From an uncultured Thermoanaerobaculia bacterium (GTDB taxonomy: Bacteria; Acidobacteriota; Thermoanaerobaculia; Thermoanaerobaculales; Sulfomarinibacteraceae), in assembly GCA_964423595.1 (NCBI GenBank), contig CAYRFI010000010.1:738-64737 (forward strand): a DNA stretch of 64,000 nt, read 5' to 3'. The translations under genes were made by a program, and so were the position numbers. The notes under the pieces are model-generated. The model saw only the letters and a list, made by a program, of their open reading frames with translations, was not told the origin of the DNA and ran no database searches. Positions within the stretch are counted from its first letter, which is position 1. Every line of letters starts with the position of its first letter. Positions 44,266 through 60,802 of this stretch are shown here, piece after piece.

Positions 44266-44376
44266 GGTTCGTGTCTCCGTCGAAGGTCCCGACCTCGGTC
44301 CGAGATCAGCCGTTGTAGAAAGTCGGTGAAGTATGTGTTTGCAATACAGAGGATCCCTCCTCGAACCGTACATCAA

Positions 44377-45735
44377 TCAGCCCCGGGTGATGCGCGCCCA
44401 CACGTAGAAAACCGCACCCACCGCGGCGCCGCTCAGCAGAATGATCCACTCGTGGGGCCACACGAGTGCCGACGGGCTGCCGGGCAGGTAGAGCATGGCC
44501 ATGCCGAGGGCGAGGGCAAAGGCAGTGTATCCGATGAACGATCCATAGCGGACACGGTACGGCCTGGGCATCTCCGGTTCCCTGTGGCGCAGGACGATGA
44601 ACGACAGCGCCACCATGGCATAAGCGATCACGATCCCGAGGCCGCCCGCATCGACCAGCCAGACCAGGGTTTGGCGGCCGAAGAGCGGGGCGAACACGGC
44701 CAACACACCCACCAAAACGACGGCGTTCGCCGGCGTGTTGAATCGTGGGTGCAACCGCCCGAGAAAACGCGGCAGTGTGCCGAATTCGGCCAGGGCATAG
44801 ATCGCGCGACTGCCGCCGACCAGGAACGCGTTCCAGCTGGTAAGGATACCGGCGATCCCGGCAACCACCACGAGCTTGCCGATCAACGGACTGCCCCAGG
44901 CCGCGGTTCCGGCTTCGGCGGTCGCCAGGCTGGCGCCGCCAAGGGCGTTGCCGTCCAGTGACAGAGCCACACCCAGCACGATCAACACGTACCAGGCCAC
45001 GGCCATGATCACCGACATCACCAGCACGGCGCCGATCTCACGATACGGCAGGTCGATCTCCTCCGCGGCCTGGGGAATCACGTCGAACCCGACCAGGAGA
45101 AACGGCACCATCACGAGCACGGTCAGCATTCCCTTGATACCGCCGACCTCGAGCGGCTGCATGTTGACGACACTACCGTTGAACACGGCACCGCCGACCA
45201 CGACGACTCCGGCCAGAAGGATGACCAGGGTCACCGCCGTCTGCACCACGGCTGCCATCTTGATGCCGACCACGTTGACGGCTGTCATCACCAGGGACCC
45301 GACGACACCGACCAGCACCCAGCTGAGGTAGACGTCGTAACCGGCGACCGTCCAGAGATAGGTTTTCTTGAGACCGGGGAAGAGGTACTCCGTGACCGTC
45401 GGCAGGGCCACCACCTCAAAGGCCACGACGCTGACATAACCAAAGATGATCGCCCAGGTGCAGACGAATGAAGCTCCGGGGCCCAGGGCGCGCAGACTGT
45501 AGGCGTGCTCGCCACCCACCAGCGGCATCGCGGACGCGAGCTCCGCGTACGTCAGGCCGATGAAGGCGATCACGCCGCCGCCGATCAAGAAAGCCGAAAT
45601 GGCGCCGAGGCTGCCGGCCGATTCCAGCCAGGTACCGGCAAGCGCCACCCAGCTCCAGCCGATCATGGCGCCGAACGCCAGCGCCAGGACCTCTCGTCGC
45701 CTGAGAACGCGGATCAGGTGGCCCTGCTGCGTCAT
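44377..45735 (-). CDS. APC-superfamily amino-acid permease
   Basis: About 12 predicted TM helices and a typical APC N-terminus (LRRREVLALAFGAMIGWSW). Start uncertain (ATG 45735 vs GTG 45777). Confidence 0.9.
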   Translation of the reverse strand: MTQQGHLIRVLRRREVLALAFGAMIGWSWVALAGTWLESAGSLGAISAFLIGGGVIAFIGLTYAELASAMPLVGGEHAYSLRALGPGASFVCTWAIIFGYVSVVAFEVVALPTVTEYLFPGLKKTYLWTVAGYDVYLSWVLVGVVGSLVMTAVNVVGIKMAAVVQTAVTLVILLAGVVVVGGAVFNGSVVNMQPLEVGGIKGMLTVLVMVPFLLVGFDVIPQAAEEIDLPYREIGAVLVMSVIMAVAWYVLIVLGVALSLDGNALGGASLATAEAGTAAWGSPLIGKLVVVAGIAGILTSWNAFLVGGSRAIYALAEFGTLPRFLGRLHPRFNTPANAVVLVGVLAVFAPLFGRQTLVWLVDAGGLGIVIAYAMVALSFIVLRHREPEMPRPYRVRYGSFIGYTAFALALGMAMLYLPGSPSALVWPHEWIILLSGAAVGAVFYVWARITRG

Positions 45736-45785
45736 CGACTCAGTTCGGAGGTTGGGTTGCGGTCCCATCAACGTCACAAATCATC

Positions 45786-47060
45786 TCAGGCCTCCAGAAC
45801 CTCGGTCATCGCAGCCAGCACCGAGTCGAGCTCCTGGTCGCTGATAGTCAGTGGCGGTTGGATGCGGAGCACGTTGCCGTACACACCGCCGATACCGATC
45901 AAGACACCTCTGTCTCGCACCGCGGCCTTGATCCTCTTCGCATCCTCTACCGCCGGCGCCTTGCTCCGGGCATCCTCGACCATCTCGATGCCGATCATGA
46001 GGCCCCTGCCGCGGATCTCGCCGATGGTGACTCTTTTCGGTTTGATATCGCGGAGGGCCAGCATCAACCGTCCGCCCTTCTCGGACACCCGATCGGCCAG
46101 GTCGTTGTCCTCCATGAACCGAATGTTGGCCAGCGATGCGGCGCAGGAGACCGGATTGCCCCCGAACGTCGTCAGGTGGTCACCCGGCTGAAACGCATCT
46201 GCGATCTCTGCCCGTGCGATGAAAGCTCCAAGCGGAAAGCCGTTGGCGATGCCCTTGGCCATGGCCATGATGTCCGGCTCGACCCCATAGTGCTCGATGG
46301 CGAACATCTTTCCGGTGCGACAGAACCCGGACTGGACCTCGTCTGCAATCAACAACACGTCGTGCTCGTCGAGGACCTCTTTGGCCACCCTGAAGTAGTC
46401 GTCCGGCGGCACGATGAGGCCACCCTCGCCCAGGAGAGGCTCGGCTACGAAGAAGGCGACGTTGTCCGCGGTGTGAAATTTGATGACATCGTCGATCGCT
46501 TTGGCACAGGCCATGCCGCAGCTTTCGAGCTCGAGACAGAGCGGGCACCGATAGCAATAGGGCGCCGGCGCAAACGCGACCCCGGGCATGTACGGGCCGC
46601 CGCCCCGCTTCCTGGTCGCGTTGCCGGTCAGGCTCAGGGTCCCGTAGGTCCGTCCGTGGAACGAATGGGTGAGAGCGATGGCTTCGTTTTTCTTGCTGTA
46701 TCGCCTGGCCAACCGTGCCGAGCCCTCGATCGCCTCAGCTCCGCTGTTTGAGAAGAAGGTCTTCTGGAGATCACCAGGCGTGATCTGTGCCAGTTTCTCG
46801 GCGAGATCGGCCACCACCTCGACGTGATAGAGGTACGAGGAGCAGTGGACCAGACGCTCCATCTGCCGTCGCGCGGCCGCCAACACTTCTTCGTTGGCGT
46901 GGCCGGCGTTGACCACCGAAATGCCGGCGAAGCAATCGATGAAGCTGCTGCCGTCTTTTGCGAAGTAGGTGGCGCCCTCGGCGCGGTCGACCACCAGCGG
47001 GTCGACGGCCGACAAAAACGCGGTGTTGACGTACTTTTCGTATTTCTCCCTGGTGTCCAC
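45786..47060 (-). CDS. class III pyridoxal-phosphate aminotransferase (GABA/ornithine/omega-aminotransferase family)
   Basis: GTG start follows GAAGGAG. Motifs NSGAEAIE, LIADEVQSGFCRTGKMFA (PLP-lysine region) and TFGGNP. Confidence 0.9.
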   Translation of the reverse strand: MDTREKYEKYVNTAFLSAVDPLVVDRAEGATYFAKDGSSFIDCFAGISVVNAGHANEEVLAAARRQMERLVHCSSYLYHVEVVADLAEKLAQITPGDLQKTFFSNSGAEAIEGSARLARRYSKKNEAIALTHSFHGRTYGTLSLTGNATRKRGGGPYMPGVAFAPAPYCYRCPLCLELESCGMACAKAIDDVIKFHTADNVAFFVAEPLLGEGGLIVPPDDYFRVAKEVLDEHDVLLIADEVQSGFCRTGKMFAIEHYGVEPDIMAMAKGIANGFPLGAFIARAEIADAFQPGDHLTTFGGNPVSCAASLANIRFMEDNDLADRVSEKGGRLMLALRDIKPKRVTIGEIRGRGLMIGIEMVEDARSKAPAVEDAKRIKAAVRDRGVLIGIGGVYGNVLRIQPPLTISDQELDSVLAAMTEVLEA

Positions 47061-47901: not shown

Positions 47902-49563
47902 ATGTGGACATCGATGCGAAGGGTTCGGAGTTCTGCGATCGCCATCGTGACCGCGAGCGTGGTTGTGCTCACCGGCTGTCAGCAAGAGGCGCCGAACAAC
48001 GGTGGCCTGATCTATGAGGGATTCGGAAACTACGAGCGATCGATTTCCTCCGGGTCCGAGAGCGCTCAACAGTGGTTCAACCAGGGCATGCAGCTGATGT
48101 ATGGGTTCAACCACGACGAGGCGATCCGGTCATTCGAGCAGGCGGCCGCGGCGGATCCGAAGAGCCCGATGCCATGGTGGGGAATCGCCTACTGCAACGG
48201 TATCAACATCAACGACCCGGAGATGACCGAAGAACGATCACGCCGCGCATGGGAGGCTTCTCAGGAGGCAATGGCGCGAATCGATGCCGCATCGCCCGTC
48301 GAGGCGGCCCTGGTCGGTGCTGTTGCACAACGGTACGCCTGGCCGGCGCCCGAGGACCGCGGAGAGCTCGACCAACGCTATGCCGACGCGATGGAGGCGG
48401 TCTACCGAGAGTTCCCGGATGATCCGGACGTCGCAGCGTTGTTCACCGAGTCGTTGATGGACCTTCAGCCGTGGGACTACTGGACCGACGCCGGCGAGCC
48501 CAAAGGCCGCACCGCGGAGTTCGTCGGCATCATCGAGCGTGCGCTCGAGACCCATCCGCTGCACCCGGGCGCAAACCACTTCTACATCCACGCCGTCGAG
48601 CCGTCGTCGAATCCCGACCGCGCGATCGAGGCCGCCGACCGCCTGAGGGTGCTCGTACCGGGCTCCGGTCATCTCGTTCATATGCCGTCGCATATCTACA
48701 TCCGGGTCGGCCGCTACGCGGATGCGGCGCAAGCCAACATCGACGCCATCAGGGTCGATCGTGCGTACCTCGCCAAGGCCCCAGCGCCCGGTCTTTACGC
48801 GATGTACTACGGGCACAACCTGCACTTTCTGTCGTTTGCGGCGATGATGTCGGGCAATTACGAGCAGGCGATCGGGGCGGCGCGCGATCTCGAGGCCGAG
48901 ATGCCGGAGTCCGCGCTGCGCGATTATGGCGGACTGATCGAGGGCATCATGCCCGCCACCTTCCACGTCCTGATCCGCTTCGGCAAATGGGAGCAGATCC
49001 TCGAGGAGCCCGACTACCCGGAGTGGCGGCTCGTGTCGCGGGCCGTCCGCCATTACGCCCGTTCGATCGCCAACTCCGCCCTCGGCCACACAGAGGAGGC
49101 GCGCGCCGAGCTGGAGGCCTTCGAAGATGCGATGGCCGAGGTGCCTCAAGAGTGGTGGATCTTCAACAACCGCGTGAGCGATGTGCTGCCGATCGCACGC
49201 GCGATGATCAACGGTGAGCTGCTCTTCCGCGAGGGCAAGCGTGAGGAGGCGTATGCAGTTCTCCGCGAGGGTGTCGCCGCCGAGGATGCTTTGGTCTACG
49301 ACGAGCCGCCCGGTTGGATGCTTCCGGTGCGCCACGCGTTGGGCGCGCTGCTGATGGCGGATGGGCGGTACGCCGAAGCAGAGTCGGTCTACCGTGAAGA
49401 CCTTCGACGCAATCGAGACAACGGCTGGTCGCTGACCGGCCTGCAGCTCGCGCTCCAGAAGCAGGAGCGCGAGTCGGAGGCGGACGAGCTGTCCATGCGC
49501 CTCGCCCGGGCGTTCAAAGACTCCGACACCCGTCCGTCTTCATCGTGTTACTGCGAGCCTTGA
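47902..49563 (+). CDS. TPR-like lipoprotein of unknown function
   Basis: ATG at 47902. Lipobox VVVLTGC. All-helical with TPR-like pairs (AQQWFNQGMQLMYGFNHDEAIRSFEQA...). Confidence 0.75.
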   Translation: MWTSMRRVRSSAIAIVTASVVVLTGCQQEAPNNGGLIYEGFGNYERSISSGSESAQQWFNQGMQLMYGFNHDEAIRSFEQAAAADPKSPMPWWGIAYCNGININDPEMTEERSRRAWEASQEAMARIDAASPVEAALVGAVAQRYAWPAPEDRGELDQRYADAMEAVYREFPDDPDVAALFTESLMDLQPWDYWTDAGEPKGRTAEFVGIIERALETHPLHPGANHFYIHAVEPSSNPDRAIEAADRLRVLVPGSGHLVHMPSHIYIRVGRYADAAQANIDAIRVDRAYLAKAPAPGLYAMYYGHNLHFLSFAAMMSGNYEQAIGAARDLEAEMPESALRDYGGLIEGIMPATFHVLIRFGKWEQILEEPDYPEWRLVSRAVRHYARSIANSALGHTEEARAELEAFEDAMAEVPQEWWIFNNRVSDVLPIARAMINGELLFREGKREEAYAVLREGVAAEDALVYDEPPGWMLPVRHALGALLMADGRYAEAESVYREDLRRNRDNGWSLTGLQLALQKQERESEADELSMRLARAFKDSDTRPSSSCYCEP

Positions 49564-49670
49564 ACTACCCGGGGTCTGTCGGTCCAACAACGGCTGGACC
49601 GCACGCTGGCTGAGCGCACGAAGATGTAGGTGTCGAGAACGCCGGCGAGGTCAGAAGGACAGTAACGATC

Positions 49671-49728
49671 AAACACCGCTGGGTGCGGCGCATCGTCGGC
49701 CGCAGTAGAGACCTGATGAATAATGCAG
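49671..49728 (-). repeat. foldback repeat, degenerate left-arm fragment I
   Basis: AAACACCGCTGGGTGCGGCGCATCG matches the reverse complement of A 4277-4301 at 24 of 25 positions. Downstream, ...CTGATGAATAATGCAG is a decayed terminus (cf. TTGGTGAGATATGCGGG). Confidence 0.6.
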
Positions 49729-49758
49729 TTTCAACGGCGACGATGTTCGGCGAGTCGA

Positions 49759-50175
49759 TCAGGCTGTGCGGGTTTGCTCGGGTGGTCCGCCCGCGACCGG
49801 CTTTCCCAGGGCTGCGGCCGCCCGCAGAACCACTTCGCGCAGGTCTTCGACGTGAAACGGTTTGGCGACGAAATCGAAGGCGCCCTTCTCCATCGCCTCA
49901 CGGGCCAGGGACATCATCGCGAATGCCGATATCACGATGACCTTGGTCCGGGGCGACCTTTTCATGGCATGCTCGAGCACCTGGACGCCGGTGGCCTCCT
50001 TCATCACGACATCGGTGATGATGACGTCGAATTCCTTCTCGTCGATACGATCGAGCGCCTGGAGAGGATCGACAAAGGTCTCCACGGTGCACCCGATTTT
50101 GGTGAGGGCCTGCTTCAGCCTCTTGCCGACGGTGGGCTCGTCGTCGAGGACCATGACCTCCAGGGTTGGTGACAT
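49759..50175 (-). CDS. stand-alone response-regulator receiver (REC-only)
   Basis: ATG at 50175 follows GGGAGGAAG. Receiver residues are present (DDEP acidic pair, phospho-acceptor D in IITDVVM, conserved Ser/Thr position, KPF). No output domain. Paralogue of 52657..53073. Confidence 0.9.
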   Translation of the reverse strand: MSPTLEVMVLDDEPTVGKRLKQALTKIGCTVETFVDPLQALDRIDEKEFDVIITDVVMKEATGVQVLEHAMKRSPRTKVIVISAFAMMSLAREAMEKGAFDFVAKPFHVEDLREVVLRAAAALGKPVAGGPPEQTRTA

Positions 50176-50240
50176 TTCTTCCTCCCGGTTAGCTTTCGAA
50201 TCGAGTGCCGTTTCGTTACCGTTCACACTCCTCGATCACG

Positions 50241-51065
50241 TCATCGCATCGAGACTGCAGCCCTGGCGAAGATGTCGTCGATCACATCGACCTCGACCTT
50301 CTCGACGTGCGGCACAGCCAGGGCCCTTTCCTTGATGACGGCGATTTTGTCGCCTTTTTTGGCGACCGCCTTGGCCTCGATGTGGATCGCGCCGTCGTCA
50401 GCGCGAACCACGACCTCCGGATCGATCTCGACGAGAACCGCTCGGACTTTGCTGGCCAGTGCGTAGTCGCGATATTGCTTGACGGAGTAGGTCATCGGTT
50501 TGAACCTGCGTTGCCGGGCCGTGTCGGCGATCAGCGCGGCGGCGTCCTCGCAGCCTGTCTCTCCCGTGTCGATCGCCAGGTCAAAGGTGGCCGTGTCGTC
50601 CTCGTTGACTTTGAAAAGAGCGGTCACCCAGCGTTGCCTTCGCTTGTCCAGGCTCAGAACCAGCTTGCGCGCTTTCGCCTCGCTGAGTTGCTGCTGTCGA
50701 GCAGCGGCCGCGGTCCTCGCCTCGAGCGGGGCACTGAGCCGGACCTTGAGGACGTGGGATATGCCGGTTACGTAGAGGTGAGCGGCCAGACCGTGGCACA
50801 CGCAGTTGCCCTCCAGCAGGAAGTCGGAAACGGCCGCCTGTATGGCGGAGAGGCGGATCCTGCGCTCTTTGACCGGCATCTGACGCCAGCCCGCCGGTTC
50901 GTCGAGGGCCTGAACCAGCTTGTCGGGCGGGATGTCATAGGTGCGCGCCGCGGCCTCAATGACCTCGTCGCGGCCGATGCTGCGGTACTGGAGGAGCGCG
51001 GCCGCCCGCACGGCTACCTCCTCGCCGCCGCTGAAGGGGGTGGCTGAAATGATGACCACTGACAT
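50241..51065 (-). CDS. cytidylate-kinase-like family protein (degenerate P-loop) with BON-like C-terminal domain
   Basis: N-terminus VVIISATPFSGGEEVAVRAAALL resembles the Cytidylate_kin2-type family, which has GSGG in place of GK[ST]. VLKVRLSAPLEARTAAAA and DxxRxxW segments. The C-terminal ~70 aa are BON-like (VVVRADDGAIHIEAKA...V..VEKVEVDV). Confidence 0.65.
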   Translation of the reverse strand: MSVVIISATPFSGGEEVAVRAAALLQYRSIGRDEVIEAAARTYDIPPDKLVQALDEPAGWRQMPVKERRIRLSAIQAAVSDFLLEGNCVCHGLAAHLYVTGISHVLKVRLSAPLEARTAAAARQQQLSEAKARKLVLSLDKRRQRWVTALFKVNEDDTATFDLAIDTGETGCEDAAALIADTARQRRFKPMTYSVKQYRDYALASKVRAVLVEIDPEVVVRADDGAIHIEAKAVAKKGDKIAVIKERALAVPHVEKVEVDVIDDIFARAAVSMR

Positions 51066-51110
51066 GTCCGTACTCCCTCCGTCGTCAGATCCGTTCGCGC
51101 TCTCGCTCCG

Positions 51111-52664
51111 TCAGAGCCGGGCGGGGATTGTTGTCACGGGCAGATGAACGATAAAGGTGCTGCCGGCTCCCACAGTGCTGGTCACGCTGATATTTCCTCC
51201 ATGACGGGCAACGATTCCCTGCGAAACCGACAGCCCGAGGCCGGTACCGCCGCGGTGACCTTCATCATGATGCTTGGTGGTGAAGAACGGGTCGAAGATC
51301 GAGGCCAGGAGGTGGGATGGGATGCCGGCGCCGGTGTCTGAGAATCGGACGGCAACGTACTTGGGATCGGCATCGGGTTCGGCGGCCAGCTCGATGCGTC
51401 CATCCCTGGGCGTGGCGTCGAGAGCGTTGAGAAGAAGGTTGAGAAAGACCTGAACGAGTTGCTTTGCGTCGCCGTGGATCCGCGGCAGGTTGGATGCGAC
51501 CTTGACCTCCAGCTTGACCGCGCTGAGATGGACCTGGTTTTGCGCCAGTTTGACGGTCTCGTTGACCAGCACCCCCAAATCAAGCGGCTCGATCCTGGCC
51601 TCGGACTCACGGGCGAAATCAAGGAGGTTGCTGATGATCCGGTCGCAGCGCTCCGCCTGGTCGACGACGTCGTCAACCATCTCTAGCTGCTCCTCTTCGG
51701 GCAGGGTGGCAAAGTCCTCCTTGAGGATCTGCGCGGTGAGGAGGATGTTGTTCACCGGGTTGTTCAGCTCATGCGCTACGCCTGCGGTCAACGTCCCCAG
51801 GGCTCGGAGCTTGTGAGTTTCGACCAGGATTGTTTGCTGCTCCTGCAGGTCCTTGGACATACGATTGAGGGCCACCGCGAGATCGGTAAACTCGTCCCGG
51901 TACCTCCGCGCGGGGACGATCGGGGTGAAGTCCGCGGCCGCGATGCGCGACGTGTAGGCCACGAAGCGGTCGAGCGGCCGGACGATGCGCCGGACCAGGA
52001 CGTGGGAGGTGATGACGATCACCAGCAGCAGGACGACCAGGAAGTAGATCGGGAAGGTCCTCGACCAGCGCAGCATGCCATGGACCGCCTGCCGTTCGCG
52101 TGCCACCAGGTCGGTGGCGAACTGTACCACCGACGCTCCTTCAGTGCGGATATCGGCCTCGTTGTCGGCTACTTCCGCCGGTGATGCGCGGCCCGCCTTT
52201 GCCGCCGCGGACAGGTCCTCCAGCAGTTCCAGATATTTTTCCGAGCGCGGGCGCATGGTTTCGAACCTCGTCTCGCCGATCACGCTGCGCAGCTGCTCGG
52301 AGTTGGCCATCAAGAGGCCGTGCGCGACCCGCATGTGTTCGAGAGCCTCGTCAAGGCCGGTTTGGTAGAGAAAGAAGTTCTTTTCATAGCGGCGAGCCTG
52401 CTGGATCTCGAACAAATAGCTATCGGCGATTTCAAGGAAATGGAGCTTTTCCTGAATCCGGAAGGCGGTGAGGATCCACAGGAAGTTGACGGCCAGGGCG
52501 AGGATGAAGCAGAGCGTAAAGCCGGTCGCGATGAGATTCCGCACGCTGAAGCGGGGACGGGAGTTCAGGGTTTCGGAATCGCCCTCCCGCTGCGGGAGCG
52601 CAGCCGCCGTCGGACCGGGTCCCGTCGCGGATTCGTCGCGATCGTGGGCGGCCGACTCAGCCAT
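51111..52664 (-). CDS. sensor histidine kinase (2 TM, periplasmic helical sensor, HAMP, HisKA, HATPase_c)
   Basis: H-box AGVAHELNNP, N-box NLLLNALDA, G1 DTGAGI, G2 GTGLGLS. Two TM segments flank a ~150-aa helical domain. A HAMP domain follows TM2. The start overlaps the upstream RR gene by 8 nt. Confidence 0.9.
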   Translation of the reverse strand: MAESAAHDRDESATGPGPTAAALPQREGDSETLNSRPRFSVRNLIATGFTLCFILALAVNFLWILTAFRIQEKLHFLEIADSYLFEIQQARRYEKNFFLYQTGLDEALEHMRVAHGLLMANSEQLRSVIGETRFETMRPRSEKYLELLEDLSAAAKAGRASPAEVADNEADIRTEGASVVQFATDLVARERQAVHGMLRWSRTFPIYFLVVLLLVIVITSHVLVRRIVRPLDRFVAYTSRIAAADFTPIVPARRYRDEFTDLAVALNRMSKDLQEQQTILVETHKLRALGTLTAGVAHELNNPVNNILLTAQILKEDFATLPEEEQLEMVDDVVDQAERCDRIISNLLDFARESEARIEPLDLGVLVNETVKLAQNQVHLSAVKLEVKVASNLPRIHGDAKQLVQVFLNLLLNALDATPRDGRIELAAEPDADPKYVAVRFSDTGAGIPSHLLASIFDPFFTTKHHDEGHRGGTGLGLSVSQGIVARHGGNISVTSTVGAGSTFIVHLPVTTIPARL

Positions 52665-53073
52665 CCGCGAGGGTCTCCTCCCCGGTCTGTGGCAGCTCCA
52701 GCTCGACGCCGAGCTCCGCGGCGGCGTTGGCGATCATTTCACGCAGCTGGCCCGGCTTGAACGGCTTGGCGAGGAAATCGAATGCCCCCTTGGCGAGAGC
52801 TTCCCGCGCCACTTCCATAGTGGCGTAGCCGGTGATCATGATCACCTTGGTATCCGGAGAGCGCCGAAGGACGTGCTCCAACACGCTGATGCCATCGATG
52901 TCATCCATGCGGATGTCCGTGACGATGATATCGAATGCGCTCTCCTCGAGGCGGGCAAGGGCGGCCTTCGGGTCGGTAAACGACTCGGTTTCGCAGCCCA
53001 TCTTGGCGATTGCCGGTCCGAGGCGCTTGCCCACGATGGGTTCGTCATCCAGTATCAGTACCCGTAAAGACAT
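52657..53073 (-). CDS. stand-alone response-regulator receiver (REC-only)
   Basis: ATG follows AGGAGG. DDEP acidic pair, D in IVTDIRM, KPF. No output domain. Confidence 0.9.
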   Translation of the reverse strand: MSLRVLILDDEPIVGKRLGPAIAKMGCETESFTDPKAALARLEESAFDIIVTDIRMDDIDGISVLEHVLRRSPDTKVIMITGYATMEVAREALAKGAFDFLAKPFKPGQLREMIANAAAELGVELELPQTGEETLADG

Positions 53074-53100
53074 TGTCGCCTCCTTTTGACTGTACGGCTA

Positions 53101-54195
53101 TCAGGACGCCGGTGACGGGATCCGGGCGACCGCGATCGTGCGCTGCAGCTTCCTTCGCTGCCGGTAGGCGCGGAAGACCTGGAGCAGGATCAAACCACAG
53201 CCGCCGATACCGCTGACGTACAGAACCACCTTACTGGCGTTATTGAAATAGACATCCCAGGCAGGGGCGAATGACAACACATCGAGCTGCCTCAGGTACA
53301 TCGGGATGGCAATGCCGCGGCTGATCACGCACAGCAGAATAATGAGCGCCGTGACCATCCGGATGTACTTCTCGCTCACCACCTTCACCCCATAGGCGCC
53401 GAGGTGAACACCGACCAGCGACCCGAGGTACATCAGCAATGTCAAACGAATGTCGACGTATCCGGCCCACGCGTAGTTCAGCGCGCCGAAGGCGCCCATG
53501 AAGATGGCGGTGTAGAGCTCGGTGCCGGTGGCCACCGCGGTCGGTATCCCGAACACATAGATCATGGCCGGCACCCCGATGAATCCACCGACCCCGATGG
53601 TCCCGGCCAGATAACCGGTGGCCAGACCCACGATGAGCACGATCCACAGCGACACGCGGACGTCGGCGACTTTGAAGTAGATCATCGGCGGCAAGTTGAA
53701 CCGCGCCAGGAAGTCGGCGATACGACGAGACGGGCCGGCCACGTCGCCACCGCCCCGCCGCAGGTCGCCCAGCATGGACAGGGCCACCACCGACAGCACA
53801 CACACGAAGACAAGGCTGATGTACAGGTTGGCGCCGGCGCCGCTGGCGGCATGTGAATCCACACCACCTTCGAACAGGAGGCTGCTGACCATCACCGCCA
53901 GCCGAATCCCGGCGAACGCGGTAAGCAGCAGGAACGCCGCCAACTTCTTGTCGACGTTGCCCATCTTGCCGTGCTGGCGTGAGCCGACCATCGCCTTACC
54001 GAACTTGTGGGTGATGTTGCTGCCGACCGCGACGACGCCCTGGACGCCGAGGTTCATCATCCCAGGCGTCATGAAGAAAGCTCCGCCGCTGCCGATGAAA
54101 CCGCTCAGGGTGCCGCCCACGAACCCGAGCCCGATCACCTGAACGGCGGTCAAGGCGTCGAGGTGGATGAAGATGCCGGCGATAGGCCAATCCAT
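53101..54195 (-). CDS. TSUP (TauE/SafE) family anion permease
   Basis: Polytopic membrane protein with two internally repeated halves, each starting with G-x-GGG-type motifs (GFIGSGGAFFMTPGM; GTIGVGGFIGVPAMIY). It is longer than I would expect for this family, because of a central insertion. Confidence 0.8.
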   Translation of the reverse strand: MDWPIAGIFIHLDALTAVQVIGLGFVGGTLSGFIGSGGAFFMTPGMMNLGVQGVVAVGSNITHKFGKAMVGSRQHGKMGNVDKKLAAFLLLTAFAGIRLAVMVSSLLFEGGVDSHAASGAGANLYISLVFVCVLSVVALSMLGDLRRGGGDVAGPSRRIADFLARFNLPPMIYFKVADVRVSLWIVLIVGLATGYLAGTIGVGGFIGVPAMIYVFGIPTAVATGTELYTAIFMGAFGALNYAWAGYVDIRLTLLMYLGSLVGVHLGAYGVKVVSEKYIRMVTALIILLCVISRGIAIPMYLRQLDVLSFAPAWDVYFNNASKVVLYVSGIGGCGLILLQVFRAYRQRRKLQRTIAVARIPSPAS

Positions 54196-54245
54196 TTCTT
54201 ACCCCCTTCTCCGCGTCGCGGCCTCTAGCCTTGCCCCGGGCCGCT

Positions 54246-55784
54246 TCACTCGAACCTCAGCCACTTCAGAATCAGCCCTGCGACACTGCCGTACAGGGCG
54301 GCGACCACCGGCACGGTTACCGCCACGGCCAGGGTCGCGGCGAACCGCCAGCTCTCCCATTCCGGGCCGCCCAGAAAGTTGAGGATGAATTGTTGATAGT
54401 TGAATACAAGCGCGTAGATCACGGCCACTGCGGCCAAAGAGATCGCGAGACTGAGGATTTGCCGCTTGTCGAAGAGAAAACTTCTGCGGAGCTCACTCGC
54501 GTTCAGGACCGAAACCCGGGTTCCCTCCCGAATCGCGCCGCACAGCTCCCTGGCGAGGCGGACTCGCGACGACTCGCCCTTCGTCAGGAAGACCTCTCCG
54601 ACAACCACCAGCGAATAGTTGGGTTGAGCGCGTAGGGTGTGGACCACCTGCTCCGCTCCCCCCATCAGCATCCGGCTGCCCCCGAAGAGACTGTCATGGA
54701 TCAGGGCCTCGGAGGTCGCGGCGATTCCGCCGTCTGGGGCGTGCGCGGTATCGGCGATGTCCTCCTCGATCCCACCGGTGGCGTCGGTCGTCTTGGGCAC
54801 GTAGCCGATTGGGCGCGGCGGCTCGGCCCCCGGCGCCTCCGCCTCCGAGCCTGCCTCGTTGTCTGGGGTTTCCGGCAGAATCAGGCGCACCAGCTCCACC
54901 GCAGCCCCCCAGCGGTGGGCGAGGTCGGTAATCTCGCTGTATGCCGGGGAGAGGGGATCGAAGGACTCTGCGACCCACATGAGGTTCGTGACCGCCATCG
55001 TGGAGACGATCTGTCGGGCTCCTTCGAGCTCGGCCAAGGATGCGGGGATCGCCTCGCCGACCTGAGCCTCGGCGGGCATGTAGGTGACGGTGACCTGCCC
55101 CTCTCGGGCAGAAACGTTCAAGTCGGCCCAGGCCGTTCGCTCGTCCCGGCCGAGCCGCTCGCGGGCGCGAGTGGCCAGGCAAAGATCGTCCATGATCCGT
55201 CTCGAGGCCGGCGTCGGCTGGAACTCCGGCAGCTGGGCCATTGCGCAGGTGGTGGCGGACGCGCTGGAGAGTCCGATCTGTTCCAGATTGAGCATCAGGT
55301 CATAGAGGTAGGGATCGTTCATGTCGACGCCGTGAGCGAAATGTACCCAGTTGGCGATGTCCTGGTCGATTTGGGTGATGTACTCGAGGGTTTTCTCGCG
55401 GCTCAGGTTGAGCCGGGTCATCGTCCTCGCCAGCCGCCGTTCCGCGTTCGGTACGACCCGCACCCGCAATACGTGGCTGATTCCCTGCAGGAGCAGATTG
55501 CCGGCCCGGCCGTGGTAGACGAGGTTCGGGCTCTTTCTGGACTGCTCGCAGATGGCGGAGGTGACGAAGGCGAGATACTGCGCCTTGTGCCGGGCGAGCC
55601 GCTCCTTGGGCAGGCCTTGCTTCAGCACAGCCATCTCCAGCCGACCGACTGGCACACCCGATTCGGTGGCTTGTTCGACGAGCTTCTCCCTGCTCAGGAC
55701 TGGGCAGTCCAACATACGGGCCAGGCTCTCGGCAAGCTCGCGCCGGAGCCCCTCGTCGACACTGGAAATGATCACAATGGCCAT
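54246..55784 (-). CDS. membrane-anchored cytidylate-kinase-like/BON-like multidomain protein
   Basis: ATG at 55784 follows GGAGAGAGG. The N-terminal ~200 aa are paralogous to 50241..51065 (HVLRVRVVPNAERRLARTM, ANWVHFAHGVD). A BON-like segment (LNVSAREGQVTVTYM...) and a Usp-like segment follow, then two C-terminal TM helices. Confidence 0.65.
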   Translation of the reverse strand: MAIVIISSVDEGLRRELAESLARMLDCPVLSREKLVEQATESGVPVGRLEMAVLKQGLPKERLARHKAQYLAFVTSAICEQSRKSPNLVYHGRAGNLLLQGISHVLRVRVVPNAERRLARTMTRLNLSREKTLEYITQIDQDIANWVHFAHGVDMNDPYLYDLMLNLEQIGLSSASATTCAMAQLPEFQPTPASRRIMDDLCLATRARERLGRDERTAWADLNVSAREGQVTVTYMPAEAQVGEAIPASLAELEGARQIVSTMAVTNLMWVAESFDPLSPAYSEITDLAHRWGAAVELVRLILPETPDNEAGSEAEAPGAEPPRPIGYVPKTTDATGGIEEDIADTAHAPDGGIAATSEALIHDSLFGGSRMLMGGAEQVVHTLRAQPNYSLVVVGEVFLTKGESSRVRLARELCGAIREGTRVSVLNASELRRSFLFDKRQILSLAISLAAVAVIYALVFNYQQFILNFLGGPEWESWRFAATLAVAVTVPVVAALYGSVAGLILKWLRFE

Positions 55785-56129
55785 GCCGTCACCTCTCTCC
55801 GTCGGATGTGGACGCCGCCTTGCGTTGGCGTCGCCATACTCGGGTAGCAGCTCGGGGCTCGATGACGTGCGCCGGTGGGAACTTCGCCTACCGGTCGCAC
55901 ACTTGGCTCCGGGCTCGGCGAGCGTAACAAGGCCGATCGCGCATATCAACATTATGAACCCGCAAGAAAACCCCTGTCGCAGAATCTGCGGAGAAGCGAG
56001 GCAGAGCGCGTGTGGTGATGGGGATGGTTACCCTGGCCGGATCGCACTCGGAAGATTTCCCCGGGATGAGAGGCGTAATGGAGGGCCTCGGCCTCCTGAA
56101 ACCGTGCCAGGTTTTGCGGAATCGATTGT

Positions 56130-57752
56130 CTATCCGATGGCACCGCCGATACCCCGGCCCGCGAGGCGGCCGGTGAGCACACAACTGCCGAGGAACGTGC
56201 CCTCGAGCGAGCCCTTGCCGTGGATGCCACCGCCGCCGAAGCCGGCGGTCTCGCCGACCGCATAGAGGCCCGGGATCGGATCCCCGGAGGAGTTGATCAC
56301 CCGGCTCTGGAGATCAGTTTGGACGCCGCCGAGGCTCTTGCGGCTGAGGATGAACTCGCGGATCGCGATCAGGGGACGCGCCTTGGAATCGTCGATCGCC
56401 TGGAAGGCGCAGGTGCGCAGGCGGTCGCCCTTGTACCGGCGGAAGTTGGCGATCCGGCGCAGCTGGTCGTCGTTGAAGTAGCGCGGGCCGCGGGCGATCT
56501 GGGCGTCGTAGGTGGCGATATCGGCCGCCATGCCTTCGCGGTCGATGGTGACGCCTTCGACGGTCAGGGCGTCCATCTTGTCCATCAGCTCGGGCATGCC
56601 TTCGGCGACGACGAAGTCCTCGGACTCTTCGATCAACCGGTCGGCCAGCTCTTTGTTGCCGAAGATGACCTGCTTGACGAGCTCGAGCTTGCGCTTGTGG
56701 CGGAAGGCGGTCATATGGTCGCAACCGGAGACAGCAAGCTCCTTGATGGCGATCTTCCAATTGAGGACCTGCCACGAGTACTGCTCGGGTGTGCGGCAGA
56801 TCTGCTCGACCAGCCAGCGCGTATCGCTGTAACCCATCAGCGGCACCGGTCCGATACGCCGGCCGCGGGCGTCGAGCCACAGCGCCGAACGCGGCGGCAC
56901 CAGGCTGATGCCGTCCCGCGGGGAGTCGGTGGTTCGCGAATGAACCCCGGCGGCATAGTGCCACTGCTTGTCGAGATGGGTGAGGGCGGCGCCGTGTTTG
57001 GCCGCCTCGTCGTGGAGCAGACCGTCGGCGAAACGGTGGGAGCCGTTGAGGAGGGTCGATGGCGGTTTGCCCCACGGCTCGTACCAGTTGGCCTTTACCT
57101 TGCTGAGGTCACCGCCACAGATGCCGCCGGAGGCGAGCACCACGTGCTCGGCTCTGGCTTCGAAATCACCGCCATCGTCCTCGAGCCTTCCGGCGCATCC
57201 GGTCACGCGACCGGCGTCGACAAGAAGCCTTTCGACCCGGTGGCCGAAAACGATCTCGAGCTTGTCGCGCTGCGGGTGGTTGTCGAGCGCGGCAACAATG
57301 GATTCGATGATGCCGAAGCCGGTGCCCCAGGCGATGTGCCAGCGAGGAACAGAGTTTCCCGGATGGAAGAGGCCGCGCTCTGCCCAGTTGACGACCGGCA
57401 GGAACTCGATTCCGTGGCCCGTGAGCCAATCGAAGATCAGCTCCGTCGAGTGCTCGACATAGGTTCGAGCCCACCGCCGGGGCCACTCGTCGTCCTCGCC
57501 GAAGTCGGCAAAGCTCTGCCAGTCCGACCAGGCGAGCTCGGGGGAGTCATCGATGCCGAGCTTTCGCTGGTGGGGGGTGTCGACGAACATCACGCCGCCG
57601 AAGGAGCGTTTGGCGAGTCCACCCAGTCGGTCCTCGGAGTCGCGATCGATGATCAGTACACGCAGACCCCGATCGAGCAGCTCGTGGGCCGTCGCCAGCC
57701 CCGCCAGACCGCCACCCGCGATAACCACGTCGGCTCGATATTGAACCGTCAT
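56130..57752 (-). CDS. FAD-binding dehydrogenase (fumarate-reductase/KstD-like flavoprotein family)
   Basis: N-terminal dinucleotide fold DVVIAGGGLAGLATAHEL. C-terminal GLYAVGETAGFGGGG typical of the FAD_binding_2 family. Confidence 0.85.
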   Translation of the reverse strand: MTVQYRADVVIAGGGLAGLATAHELLDRGLRVLIIDRDSEDRLGGLAKRSFGGVMFVDTPHQRKLGIDDSPELAWSDWQSFADFGEDDEWPRRWARTYVEHSTELIFDWLTGHGIEFLPVVNWAERGLFHPGNSVPRWHIAWGTGFGIIESIVAALDNHPQRDKLEIVFGHRVERLLVDAGRVTGCAGRLEDDGGDFEARAEHVVLASGGICGGDLSKVKANWYEPWGKPPSTLLNGSHRFADGLLHDEAAKHGAALTHLDKQWHYAAGVHSRTTDSPRDGISLVPPRSALWLDARGRRIGPVPLMGYSDTRWLVEQICRTPEQYSWQVLNWKIAIKELAVSGCDHMTAFRHKRKLELVKQVIFGNKELADRLIEESEDFVVAEGMPELMDKMDALTVEGVTIDREGMAADIATYDAQIARGPRYFNDDQLRRIANFRRYKGDRLRTCAFQAIDDSKARPLIAIREFILSRKSLGGVQTDLQSRVINSSGDPIPGLYAVGETAGFGGGGIHGKGSLEGTFLGSCVLTGRLAGRGIGGAIG

Positions 57753-57900
57753 CAGGCCTCCCGCCGAAGAAACACTGGATTATCCCTACCAACGGTCTCG
57801 GCGCGTGTCAAACGCCGATTCGGTGCCGGTCCGCATTGCCCGGTCGCGGCGGTGCCGCTATAGTCTGTCCACATCGCATCTCGCAACCGGGGGGGAATCG

Positions 57901-59220
57901 ATGAAAAATGTACTCGTGGCCACGTTCTTGTTGGTTCTGTGCGTGCCGCCGGTCCACGCCGACCAGGATCTGGCACAGGCGGTGGCCGAGGATTACGAGG
58001 GGTCGCTGGCCGAATTGTTTGTCTGGTTTCACAGCCATCCAGAGCTGTCGTTTCGTGAGTACAAGACGGCGGCCCGGCTCGCCGAAGAGCTCCGCTCTGC
58101 CGGCGTCGAAGTCACCGAGGGCGTGGGCGGCACCGGGGTTGTCGGTATGCTGCGCAACGGCGACGGCCCATTGGTGATGGTCCGAGCCGATATGGACGGT
58201 TTGCCGATTCGAGAGGACACCGGTCTCGACTATAGCTCGACCGTCACTCAGGTGGATATCACCGGCGTCGAGCGGCCGGTCATGCACGCCTGCGGACACG
58301 ATGTGCACATCACGTCAATGGTGGGAACGGCAAAACGGTTGGTCGCCATGCGCGACAGATGGTCCGGCACGGTGATGTTTGTCGGCCAGCCGGCCGAGGA
58401 ACGTGTTGGCGGCGCCAAGGCGATGATCGAAGACGGGCTCTACGATCGATTTGGCGTCCCGGACTGCGCGCTCGCGTTCCATATTGCTGCCGGCGAACCG
58501 GTGGGCAAGGTGATGATCTCGAGCGGTCTCATTGCGTCGTCGGCGGACAGCGTCGATATTACGGTCTACGGGATCGGCGCCCATGGCGCCTCCCCGCACA
58601 GAGGCAAGGACCCGGTCTACATCGCGGCCCAGATCGTGGTCGCCCTGCAGAGCCTGGTCAGCCGGGAGCTGGCGCCGCTCGAGCCCGGCGTCGTAACGGT
58701 TGGATCCATCCACGGTGGTTCCAAGCACAACATCATTCCCGACGAAGTGAAGTTGCAGCTCACGGTCCGTGCCGACAGCCAGGAGACCCGCGAAAAGCTG
58801 CTGAGCGGCATCGAACGCATCGCCCTGGGCGTCGCACGCACTGCCGGCATGCCCGAGGACCGGCTGCCGAAGGTGGAGGTGACCGAAGGCACCCCGCCGA
58901 CGGTGAATGACGACGAGCTCGTGGCCCGCATCCGCAAAGCGTTTGTCAGGGAGTTTGGTGAGGATGCTGTCTCCGAGAAGAAGCGCGAGGGTATGGGCGC
59001 CGAAGACTTCGCCTTTTTCGTGATGACCGACGACGACGTTCCCGGGGCCTACTTCTCGGTCGGCGGGACATCGCAGGCCGATTTGGACGCCGAGGAAGCG
59101 GGTGGCTCACCCGTTCCGTCCCATCACTCTCCGCTCTTCAAAATCGAGCCAGAGCCCTCGGTGACGATGGGAGTCGAGGCGATGACGGTTGCCGTCCTCG
59201 AGCTGTTGGGGAACACGTAA
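57901..59220 (+). CDS. M20D-family amidohydrolase (hippurate hydrolase / N-acyl-L-amino-acid amidohydrolase-like), secreted
   Basis: ATG at 57901 gives the signal peptide MKNVLVATFLLVLCVPPVHA. Metal-site motif MHACGHDVH. GQPAEE and GAEDF motifs. Confidence 0.9.
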   Translation: MKNVLVATFLLVLCVPPVHADQDLAQAVAEDYEGSLAELFVWFHSHPELSFREYKTAARLAEELRSAGVEVTEGVGGTGVVGMLRNGDGPLVMVRADMDGLPIREDTGLDYSSTVTQVDITGVERPVMHACGHDVHITSMVGTAKRLVAMRDRWSGTVMFVGQPAEERVGGAKAMIEDGLYDRFGVPDCALAFHIAAGEPVGKVMISSGLIASSADSVDITVYGIGAHGASPHRGKDPVYIAAQIVVALQSLVSRELAPLEPGVVTVGSIHGGSKHNIIPDEVKLQLTVRADSQETREKLLSGIERIALGVARTAGMPEDRLPKVEVTEGTPPTVNDDELVARIRKAFVREFGEDAVSEKKREGMGAEDFAFFVMTDDDVPGAYFSVGGTSQADLDAEEAGGSPVPSHHSPLFKIEPEPSVTMGVEAMTVAVLELLGNT

Positions 59221-59249
59221 TCGATTGACCGCAATCTACACTTGATCTC

Positions 59250-60617
59250 ATGAATGAGATGAACGAAGTTCGCCCGCCGCGCGGTATGTGGCGACGCGCT
59301 CTGTGGTACGCCGATCGCACCCTCGAGGCGCGGAACCGTTACGTTGATTTTCTGAGAGCGTTGTCGATCCTGGCCGTGGTGCTGGGACACTGGCTGATCT
59401 CGGCGCCGTACTTCGACAACGGCGCGCCCGCATACAGCCACCTGCTCGATCTCGCTCCCTGGTCGCGCTGGTTGACCTGGCTTTTCCAGGTGATGCCAGT
59501 CTTCTTTTTCGTCGGCGGATTTTCCAATGGCGTCTCGTGGGAGTCCGCGCTACGCAAGCAGCTTTCCTACCGGCAGTGGTTCGACGCCCGGACACGGCGC
59601 CTCATCGGTCCGGTGCTGCCGCTGCTCGTCGCCTGGGGTTTGATGGTCGCGGTGGCCCACTCCAACGGGGTCGGCGCTGGGATGATCCATATCGGTTCCA
59701 AGGTCGCGTTGGTGCCTGTGTGGTTCCTCGCCGTCTACATCATGGTGGTGGCGTTGGTGCCTGTGAGCCACGCGGCGTGGAAGCGGTGGAGCTTCGCTTC
59801 CGTCCTCGTCCCGGTCGGTGCCGTGGCGCTGGTCGATGTGGCCTTCTTCGTCGGTGATCTGCGGGCACTGGGCTGGTTCAACTATCCCTTCGTCTGGCTG
59901 GCCGTGCATCAGCTCGGCTACGCATGGCACGACCGCAGGCTCGCCGGCCCGCGGGTTGGCTTGGCGATGTTCGTTGTCGGGATCATGGCTCTCGTCGCTT
60001 TCACCCACATCGGGCCCTATCCACTCAGTCTGGTGGGTGTCCCGGGTGACGAGGTCAGCAACACCCTGCCGCCCAAGCTACCGCTGCTGGCGTTGGCGGC
60101 GGCGCAGATCGGCCTGGTGCTGATGCTCGAGGACCCTGCCAGGCGTTGGTTGGAACACCGCGTGCCGTGGGCCGCAACGATCCTGATCAACGGCATGATC
60201 ATGACGATCTTTCTATGGCACTCGACCGTGATGATGCTGCTGGTCGGGCTCGCCTTCTGGCAGATGCCAGGGGCCCTCGCGCAGCAACCCGATACCGCCG
60301 GGTGGTGGTGGACGCGCCCATTGTGGCTCTCCGTCTACGCGCTGGCGACGCTGCCCTTCCTGCTCGTCTTCGGCCGTTTCGAGCGGCCAGCTGCAGGCGG
60401 TCCCGCGAGGCCGGCCGCGGTCTGGCTGCAGCTGCTCGGCTGCACCGTCGCCTGTGCGGGTCTGGCCATGCTGGCGTTTGACGGCGTCGGCGGTGGCGGC
60501 TGGTTCGGGCTGCGCTGGATACCGCTCGTGACGCCATTGATCGGCGCCGGCCTGGCCGGCTTCGGCCCGCTCGGGCCGATGGGTCGAGTCCTCAGCGGCG
60601 TTCCAGCAAAGAACTGA
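59250..60617 (+). CDS. acyltransferase-3 family integral membrane protein
   Basis: N-terminus RNRYVDFLRALSILAVVLGHW (family R/H motif), followed by ~10 TM helices. Confidence 0.8.
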   Translation: MNEMNEVRPPRGMWRRALWYADRTLEARNRYVDFLRALSILAVVLGHWLISAPYFDNGAPAYSHLLDLAPWSRWLTWLFQVMPVFFFVGGFSNGVSWESALRKQLSYRQWFDARTRRLIGPVLPLLVAWGLMVAVAHSNGVGAGMIHIGSKVALVPVWFLAVYIMVVALVPVSHAAWKRWSFASVLVPVGAVALVDVAFFVGDLRALGWFNYPFVWLAVHQLGYAWHDRRLAGPRVGLAMFVVGIMALVAFTHIGPYPLSLVGVPGDEVSNTLPPKLPLLALAAAQIGLVLMLEDPARRWLEHRVPWAATILINGMIMTIFLWHSTVMMLLVGLAFWQMPGALAQQPDTAGWWWTRPLWLSVYALATLPFLLVFGRFERPAAGGPARPAAVWLQLLGCTVACAGLAMLAFDGVGGGGWFGLRWIPLVTPLIGAGLAGFGPLGPMGRVLSGVPAKN

Positions 60618-60802
60618 GAGCTTTCGGGGACCACAGACGTATCCGACACCACCGTCCTTTCTCTGTTTATTGAAACCCGCGCCCGGCTTTTGCGAATAAC
60701 CAAATGTGCGTTCAACAATCCCCGGTTCCTGTGAGTTGCCCGAAGGCGATGGCGGGTGCTGAGGGGCCTTTTTGAATCATGAGGGAGAGAAGGAGAACCG
60801 AA

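Follow-up and report, generated by a model that had tools for sequence, protein, structure and literature searches.

A candidate two-component-linked anion-permease module with predicted pseudo-kinases, conserved across bacterial phyla

A 64,000-nt stretch of DNA from an uncultured Thermoanaerobaculia bacterium (assembly GCA_964423595.1, contig CAYRFI010000010.1, positions 738 to 64,737), hereafter the window, carries on its minus strand six genes that very probably form a real, conserved module in which a two-component system is linked to an anion permease. In transcription order, they encode a membrane-anchored cytidylate-kinase-like protein (CKmem), a TSUP permease of the TauE type (TauE), a stand-alone receiver (RECa), a HAMP-containing sensor histidine kinase (HK), a soluble cytidylate-kinase-like protein (CKsol), and a second stand-alone receiver (RECb). 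The explanation that we consider best overall, with a probability of roughly 0.4, is that a signal would pass from the kinase through the receivers and the cytidylate-kinase-like (CK-like) adaptors to the permease, with a sulfur oxyanion as the favored substrate. The module is widespread, has apparently never been studied, and may control the uptake of sulfate-like anions; full-text literature searches returned no description of it as a combination. To our knowledge, the Cytidylate_kin2 family has solved structures and no known function, and for most TSUP permeases neither a substrate nor a regulator is known. An earlier interpretation made from the sequence alone (the sequence-only reading) had singled out the cluster as an uncharacterized signaling and transport module, and this view is supported: the domains pass profile searches, the neighborhood is conserved, and no prior description was found.

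The six open reading frames (ORFs) span positions 49759-55784, with coordinates as first read, and the ORF list confirms their arrangement as same-strand genes with short gaps and one overlap. The intergenic distances are 50, 27, -8, 45, and 65 nt in transcription order, the negative value being the 8-nt overlap of the RECa and kinase genes (52657-52664), which had also been read correctly. Gene 1 is nested in a longer ORF (54246-55952); its start was placed at 55784, directly downstream of GGAGAGAGG, because MAIVIISS forms the N-terminus in 30/30 aligned homologs. All six proteins gave Pfam hits above the gathering scores, and the scan recovered the core set that the sequence-only reading had expected, namely TauE, HAMP with HisKA and HATPase_c, two REC-only proteins, and two Cytidylate_kin2 proteins; an NCBIfam scan of the six returned no equivalog. 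The flanking genes encode peptidases, an amino-acid permease, an aminotransferase, a TPR protein, and an FAD oxidoreductase, and since these are unrelated to it, the cluster is a discrete unit.

Conservation of the neighborhood, the absence of which had been set beforehand as one of three refuters of this view, extends far beyond the genome of the window. A total of 80 loci from GTDB species representatives were mapped by tblastn and then counted; almost all belong to Desulfobacterota (including the cultured strain NaphS2), with Acidobacteriota making up the rest. A receiver gene directly follows the CKsol-type gene in 67/69 loci, the orthologous HAMP kinase lies no more than 7 kb away in 56/64, and an anion permease is found within 9 kb in every case (41/41). 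The best locus, in a Holophagae metagenome-assembled genome (MAG; L016 in our locus numbering), has the same six genes in the same order at 63–84% identity; on this match, the host was placed near Holophagae (Acidobacteriota). Overall, the module recurs in at least five phyla (Acidobacteriota, Desulfobacterota, Abyssubacteria, Hydrogenedentota, and Acidithiobacillales), with component identities of 44–84% and preserved local order. The six-gene set occurs in Holophagae, Abyssubacteria, Hydrogenedentota (complete genome CP070779.1), and Acidithiobacillales. In the latter three, CKmem-TauE-REC is accompanied by a further soluble-type CK-like gene, a receiver, and a HAMP kinase, and in Abyssubacteria and Hydrogenedentota all of these genes form a single same-strand run; across the three groups, TauE is 65–71%, the receivers are ~70%, and the kinase is ~50% identical. 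Homologs of CKsol, both close and distant, share this gene context. More distant proteins combining Cytidylate_kin2 and BON domains (33–38% identity) lie in unrelated contexts, beside ETF or DegP/Lgt genes, and the association is therefore specific to this subfamily rather than general to all Cytidylate_kin2+BON proteins.

The loci are assembled from recurring units. The commonest form, found in most Desulfobacterota (unit A), reads [sigma-54 response regulator]-Usp-DASS(+TrkA_C)-CKa-CKb-REC-HK, unit B reads CKmem-TauE-REC, and unit C reads TauE-Alph_Pro_TM-PPDK-like-REC-Usp. The order CKmem, then TauE, then REC holds in every locus with sequence available, and the window consists of unit B plus the sensory core of unit A. 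The duplicated pair of modules that the sequence-only reading had proposed gives way to two old, separable units, which occur apart from each other and with other permeases. The permease families abutting CK-like genes are DASS (as DASS-CKa-CKb, in most loci), SulP, and TauE (as CKmem-TauE). Seven loci proved to carry SulP (Sulfate_transp+STAS) in de novo ORF clustering, among them L020 and L021 (SulP-CKb, separated by 15 nt), L030 and L059 (SulP-CK-REC), and L025 and L056 (SulP directly after the kinase). In Abyssubacteria and Hydrogenedentota, a SulP-STAS gene lies beside the six-gene set in convergent orientation. The SulP-STAS proteins have ~710-735 aa (L020:825-3794, L021:919-3852, L098:14333-16540, and L099:14350-16509). 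The permease is therefore an interchangeable part of the module, whereas the kinase, including its periplasmic domain, is orthologous across loci.

The sensor kinase comprises a first transmembrane (TM) helix (TM1, residues 49–67), a helical periplasmic domain of ~135 aa, a second helix (TM2, 206–224), and HAMP, HisKA, and HATPase_c domains. Its H-box (AHELNNP) and its N, G1, and G2 boxes (LLNALDA, DTGAGI, and GTGLGL) are intact, and it is 48% identical to its Desulfobacterota ortholog over the full length, periplasmic domain included. The motif FLEI..EIQQARR[YF]EKNFFLY is common to the periplasmic domains of the orthologs, for which a Pfam search at E≤10 gave no credible family. RECa and RECb are paralogs, as had been proposed (55% identity over 121 aa, E 3e-50), and their description as REC-only is borne out by Pfam, which finds no output domain or other further domain on either. 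RECa represents the permease-adjacent receiver class and RECb the class located directly after the soluble CK-like gene. Thirteen TauE-adjacent orthologs share with RECa the DD of the acidic pocket, the acceptor Asp within TDIRM, and the Thr and Lys residues, and the receiver motifs LDDE, TD(I/V), T/S, and AKPF are conserved in these 13 and in 75 CK-adjacent orthologs. In NCBIfam, the receivers of the window resemble NtrC/AtoC-type receiver domains, and CpdR is also among the similar receivers, with all equivalog scores far under their cut-offs. The kinase and receivers carry the features that define the two-component families, and phosphotransfer between them is predicted. The permease scored 126.4 bits against a cut-off of 32.6 (PF01925) and has several hydrophobic segments and a C-terminal extension; its 364 aa exceed the Pfam model, whose 237 positions align to residues 21–291. 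It is 63–84% identical to the CKmem-adjacent TauE proteins of other phyla.

The two CK-like proteins scored 78.9 and 93.0 bits against Cytidylate_kin2 (PF13189; cut-off 28) and are paralogous, as the sequence-only reading held (29% identity over 214 aa, E 5e-16). Its label of P-loop-like proteins had to be abandoned, as neither has a Walker A motif. The GxxxxGK[ST] pattern is missing after strand 1, where CKsol reads ISATPFSGGEEVA and CKmem reads ISSVDEGLRRELA, and in alignments the glycine-rich loop and the Walker lysine are absent across 26 CKsol and 31 CKmem homologs. Within the strand-1 stretch, a Ser is the sole invariant residue of the CKsol family, and only I6 and S7 are near-invariant in the CKmem family. 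Against the NCBIfam (d)CMP kinase model (TIGR02173), CKsol reached 28.9 bits with a cut-off of 102.1, and CKmem gave no match. Because neither protein has a Walker A motif, their sequences identify them as pseudo-kinases rather than P-loop enzymes, and they are likely to serve as non-catalytic adaptors or ligand sensors. A search of 1.84 billion representatives with the CKmem profile yielded no more than 418 relatives at E≤1e-30; the family is narrow.

Structural models extend this picture. CKsol (predicted local distance difference test score, pLDDT, 88.3) consists of an NMP-kinase-like domain (1–185), a BON-like small alpha/beta domain (192–262), and a conserved disordered C-terminal tail. 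CKmem (pLDDT 82.7) comprises Cytidylate_kin2 (1–185), a BON-like domain (~192–263), a Usp-like Rossmann-like alpha/beta domain (266–302 and 354–435) split by a disordered loop (306–347) with a conserved GGIEDD, and two C-terminal TM helices. These hydrophobic helices, placed at ~443–461 and ~487–505 by hydropathy and the model, uphold the membrane anchor that had been assigned to gene 1. The best Foldseek matches of both models were 3hdt and 3fdi (TM-score 0.74–0.85 on target), with CMP kinases ranking after them for CKsol; the CKmem model also matched DolP, a dual-BON protein (E 6e-3), UspA 3s3t (E 7e-3, TM-score 0.64), and 1jmv. The BON-like and Usp-like labels of the sequence-only reading hold in part: in direct Pfam searches, neither BON (PF04972) nor Usp matched the window proteins at E≤0.01, whereas homologs and structural models support both. 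For BON, 2/6 CKmem homologs gave hits at E ~1e-3 to 2e-3, short of the cut-off, distant CKsol homologs bear a precomputed PF04972 annotation, and the CKsol-family profile matched OsmY at E 0.022. For Usp (PF00582), the best Pfam E was 0.12, in 1/6 homologs, and hhalign matched CKmem residues 256–440 to a Usp family with an E of 0.028, the alignment staying in register throughout the domain; the UspFG-type ATP motif G-2x-G-9x-G(S/T) is not visible in VVVGEVFLTKGESSRVRLAREL of CKmem.

CKa, the DASS-adjacent paralog not encoded in the window, keeps GSYSKGKE after strand 1, a Walker A motif with Glu replacing Ser/Thr (for example, L001:4924-5736). The N-terminal half of CKmem is closer to CKa (E 2e-35) than to CKsol (E 6e-17), and this sequence relationship suggests two classes of CK-like protein, one permease-proximal and the other sensor-proximal. 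Because its N-terminal half is closest to CKa and unit A has a separate Usp gene, CKmem looks like a fusion of CKa and Usp with a membrane anchor. Additionally, the end of the CKsol tail (..SMR; 50241-50262) is nearly invariant across phyla, and the CKmem loop (54750-54800; pLDDT <50) contains an invariant GGIE-D; both look like short docking motifs.

From these components, we infer that the cluster is a compact, horizontally mobile signaling-plus-transport module derived from two old units, one comprising the TSUP permease, CKmem, and RECa, and the other, the sensory core, comprising the HAMP kinase, CKsol, and RECb. The kinase would detect an anion outside the cell by means of its conserved helical domain in the periplasm and would phosphorylate both RECa and RECb, as suggested by their acceptor residues, which are intact, and by the overlap or adjacency of the genes. 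Since the receivers have no DNA-binding or output domain and are strictly paired with CK-like genes, the phosphorylated receivers would bind the CK-like adaptors. The adaptors, held at the membrane by a BON-like domain or TM helices, would then switch the permease on or off post-translationally. Gating of the permease by receivers through CK-like adaptors, in that direction, is a tentative proposal with clearly less than an even chance of being right.

A sulfur oxyanion such as sulfate is the substrate we favor, at somewhat under even odds, because TSUP, DASS, and SulP are among the candidate sulfate-carrier families of sulfate reducers, where SulP, DASS, and TSUP/CysZ represent three of four (PMC5840216). 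TSUP family members carry sulfur oxyanions (PMC11535334; PMC5840216), and a TauE-family protein complements an Escherichia coli cysA mutant for sulfate uptake (PMC11535334). Furthermore, the SulP length in module loci, ~710 aa, equals that of the putative sulfate-transporter group Ci (PMC5840216), the hosts are mostly sulfate-reducing Desulfobacterota, and an ATP sulfurylase gene lies near the Acidithiobacillales set (L097). A bolder extension, which we regard as improbable, is that receivers with CK-like/BON pseudo-enzymes constitute an unrecognized class of phosphorylation-driven post-translational regulators of TSUP, DASS, and SulP permeases and, in sulfate-reducing and sulfur-cycling bacteria, the long-sought switch for dissimilatory sulfate uptake.

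Several points weigh against the chain from kinase to permease and its favored substrate. The stand-alone receivers might be mere phosphate sinks. The BON and Usp assignments draw on sub-threshold sequence scores, which are weak but consistent, and on the fold likeness of predicted models. Moreover, the wider family clearly has a transcriptional output too, because a sigma-54 regulator and promoter precede the operon in most relatives. As for the substrate, there are no sulfur-metabolism genes among the genes of the window and no sat, apr, or dsr beside the Desulfobacterota loci, JGI annotates the DASS homologs as di/tricarboxylate transporters, and SulP members transport bicarbonate or dicarboxylates as well. 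A possible connection with the DASS/SulP genes that respond to sulfate in Desulfobacterium autotrophicum (HRM2_40290/40360 and HRM2_38230-38300) found no confirmation; this strain is absent among the 120 best DASS homologs, and the genes between HRM2_40290 and HRM2_40360 are not listed in the literature found. In Desulfosudis oleivorans Hxd3, the DASS gene of the module lies at 2.89 Mb, a position that does not fit Dole_1359, a member of group Cii (PMC5840216).

The transcriptional output of the relatives leads to a different explanation, in which the cluster would be an ordinary transcriptional two-component system with a DNA-binding regulator elsewhere in the genome, the REC-only proteins would be phosphate sinks or modulators, and the CK-like proteins would be co-expressed stress or membrane proteins without a signaling role. 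A sigma-54 regulator and promoter accompany the sensory core in most relatives, chiefly Desulfobacterota, and a sigma-54 response regulator is also found upstream in the closest relative, L016 (tblastn map). Of the 37 loci where such a regulator directly precedes the operon, 33 have a sigma-54-type element (GG-N10-GC) ahead of the first operon gene, mostly Usp, and in 30 of those 33 it is 40–56 nt from the start codon. In loci within the range L018-L094, an element of the form YGGCAN-N6-TTGCW stands between the regulator gene and the Usp-DASS-CK-CK-REC-HK operon (examples are L036:6336 and L080:6668). The likeness of the receivers to NtrC/AtoC-type domains fits this explanation as well. However, no sigma-54 regulator is detectable across the 64-kb window, the YGGCAN-N6-TTGCW element is absent upstream of gene 1 in both the window and L016, and the Abyssubacteria and Hydrogenedentota sets have no sigma-54 regulator nearby. 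An NtrC-type sigma-54 output does not describe the window, where both receivers are REC-only and no -24/-12 promoter lies upstream of gene 1. The strict pairing of CK-like, receiver, and permease genes over five phyla is also hard to derive from co-expression alone, and we therefore consider the purely transcriptional explanation unlikely. The protein-protein output suggested by the sequence-only reading remains plausible for the window; as the sole output of the wider family it does not stand, because the sigma-54 regulator and promoter accompany the core in most relatives.

The same components could also operate with information flowing in reverse, the permease acting as a co-sensor and the CK-like adaptors informing the HAMP kinase of the permease's transport state or of an intracellular ligand, while the receivers would carry output elsewhere or buffer phosphate. 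The CKsol-type genes are most tightly tied to the kinase and receiver (67/69 and 56/64), whichever permease is present, the BON-like domain and TM anchor of the models would keep both adaptors next to the kinase at the membrane, and polar residues conserved in the former substrate cleft in the CKsol alignment (C90, H96, S103, H104, R143, R145, and W146) are compatible with ligand sensing. Nevertheless, the kinase has a well-conserved periplasmic domain of its own, a point in favor of its sensing the exterior directly, and a separate receiver for each permease would be left unexplained, which makes this analogy-based arrangement somewhat unlikely. Very unlikely, in our judgment, is that the CK-like proteins are true nucleotide or small-molecule enzymes (CMP, APS [adenosine 5'-phosphosulfate], or other kinases) coupling anion import to metabolism. 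Both do exceed the Cytidylate_kin2 gathering threshold with a confident NMP-kinase fold, and CKa keeps its near-Walker A loop; but the 26 CKsol and 31 CKmem homologs have no glycine-rich loop or Walker lysine, the (d)CMP kinase scores lie far below the cut-off (28.9 vs 102 bits) or are missing, and no activity is known for 3hdt and 3fdi, the nearest structural matches. A purely accidental grouping of unrelated genes within a single genome has practically no probability left, being already refuted by the recurrence of the set, with its local order, in at least five phyla.

Among known systems, KdpD/KdpE-KdpFABC offers a likeness as a transporter-dedicated two-component system. The cytoplasmic N-terminal part of KdpD is a P-loop-like domain, after which come a Usp domain and TM helices, and the order of NMP-kinase-like, Usp-like, and TM parts in CKmem resembles it. 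In the cluster, however, these domains are on a separate protein with a BON-like domain inserted, CKmem has no kinase core, and no Pfam match to the KdpD domain (PF02702) was found in the cluster proteins; unlike KdpE and KdpFABC, the receivers have no DNA-binding domain and the transporter is a secondary anion permease rather than a P-type ATPase. PhoU links PstSCAB to PhoR, and DctA/DcuB modulate DcuS. In these systems an accessory protein or transporter couples transport status to the kinase, which by analogy is the logic of the reverse arrangement considered above, whereas the cluster has no PhoU domain and different permease families. The structures 3hdt and 3fdi, PF13189 members like CKmem and CKsol and their best superpositions, are single-domain Firmicutes proteins from structural genomics with a GSGG loop and no known function; the CK-like proteins of the cluster have lost this loop and gained BON-like, Usp-like, and TM parts. 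Gene 2 shares PF01925 with the TSUP/TauE-SafE permeases (sulfite/sulfoacetate exporters and a sulfate importer), yet none of the characterized members is reported with a dedicated set of kinase, receiver, and pseudo-kinase. CheY-FliM, DivK-DivL, and CpdR-ClpXP provide parallels for RECa and RECb as receiver-only proteins with an intact phospho-acceptor and no output domain; in the cluster, the presumed partner differs in being a pseudo-enzyme of the NMP-kinase fold beside a permease. The Desulfobacterota operon of sigma-54 response regulator, Usp, DASS, CKa, CKb, REC, and HAMP kinase (NaphS2 and D. oleivorans Hxd3) has an orthologous kinase (48%), receiver (~64%), and soluble CK-like protein (38%), and it differs from the window in its DASS with TrkA_C, a second soluble CK-like protein with the near-Walker A loop, a separate Usp, and the sigma-54 regulator and promoter. 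By its defining features, the cluster belongs to the two-component, TSUP, and Cytidylate_kin2 families and is not a CMP kinase, a KdpD module, or a sigma-54 output system. Functionally, it appears nearest, by analogy, to transporter-dedicated two-component systems with accessory proteins and single-domain receivers acting on protein partners.

The cluster gives the Cytidylate_kin2 and TSUP families a conserved, testable context in which a dedicated kinase and stand-alone receivers go with an anion permease that can be exchanged. Should the substrate prove to be a sulfur oxyanion, this would bear on the identity of the carriers through which sulfate reducers take up sulfate and on how high- and low-affinity uptake are switched. 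If receivers do act on adaptors, this would represent a new output type for single-domain response regulators. Cultured hosts with the DASS form of the module are D. oleivorans Hxd3 (CP000859.1, 2.88-2.90 Mb) and strain NaphS2.

Additional features were observed at individual loci. Unit C occurs at L001:9671-16417, L054:13-5297, L051:13144-17841, L066:13286-18019, and L096:15081-17956, and its PPDK-like protein (~820-866 aa) combines PPDK_N (ATP-grasp) with a PEP-utilizers phosphohistidine domain. In D. oleivorans Hxd3, a PPDK-like gene and a receiver lie between the CK-like genes and the kinase in one same-strand run. A phosphohistidine enzyme beside a receiver hints at a second phosphoryl input. 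In the Acidithiobacillales MAG (L097:1-7937), the genes ahead of CKmem-TauE-REC-HK encode an ATP sulfurylase, two Rrf2 regulators, a fusion of a Fer4/CCG (HdrD-like) protein with a receiver, a PAS kinase, and two additional stand-alone receivers. At L012 (1939-3749 and 10419-14336), DASS is broken into two ORFs, the result of either a frameshift or an assembly error, and the DNA a few kb downstream of the module encodes a reverse transcriptase of a group II intron and a serine recombinase.

Table 1. Features of the six-gene cluster in the window, in transcription order
Feature	Coordinates	Strand	Description
Gene 1, CKmem	54246..55784	-	Membrane-anchored predicted pseudo-kinase; PF13189 E 6.9e-22
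Gene 2, TSUP/TauE permease	53101..54195	-	364 aa; PF01925 E 1.9e-36
Gene 3, RECa	52657..53073	-	Stand-alone receiver, 138 aa; PF00072 E 1.8e-29
Gene 4, sensor histidine kinase	51111..52664	-	HAMP E 1.2e-11, HisKA E 2.1e-16, HATPase_c E 1.3e-27
Gene 5, CKsol	50241..51065	-	Soluble predicted pseudo-kinase; PF13189 E 3.1e-26
Gene 6, RECb	49759..50175	-	Stand-alone receiver, 138 aa; PF00072 E 2.2e-26
Upstream intergenic region	55785..56129	-	Presumed promoter region of the six-gene unit

In the region upstream of gene 1 (Table 1), a single weak sigma-70-like match (55980-55951) does not exceed chance expectation, and the frequency of sigma-70 promoters and intrinsic terminators around the cluster is not above that in shuffled sequences. 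A candidate sigma-54 promoter was rejected here: a lone TGGCAC hexamer has no -12 TTGC at the proper spacing. This isolated TGGCAC lies at 56095-56110 on the minus strand, ~310 nt upstream of gene 1. An Rfam scan of 49000-56600 gave nothing near significance. PADLOC gave generic receiver-domain matches only, and the idea of an anti-phage defense system was therefore rejected. Long antisense ORFs at 54639-55847 (+), 43132-44961 (+), and 48238-49335 (-), with 365-609 aa, overlap real genes; they are typical of DNA with ~64% G+C and are not genes. On both sides (42169-47060 and 57805-62824), the surroundings of the cluster are devoted to peptide and amino-acid catabolism and include an S15 X-Pro dipeptidyl peptidase, an APC amino-acid permease, a class-III aminotransferase, M20/M13 peptidases, and an Acyl_transf_3 membrane protein.

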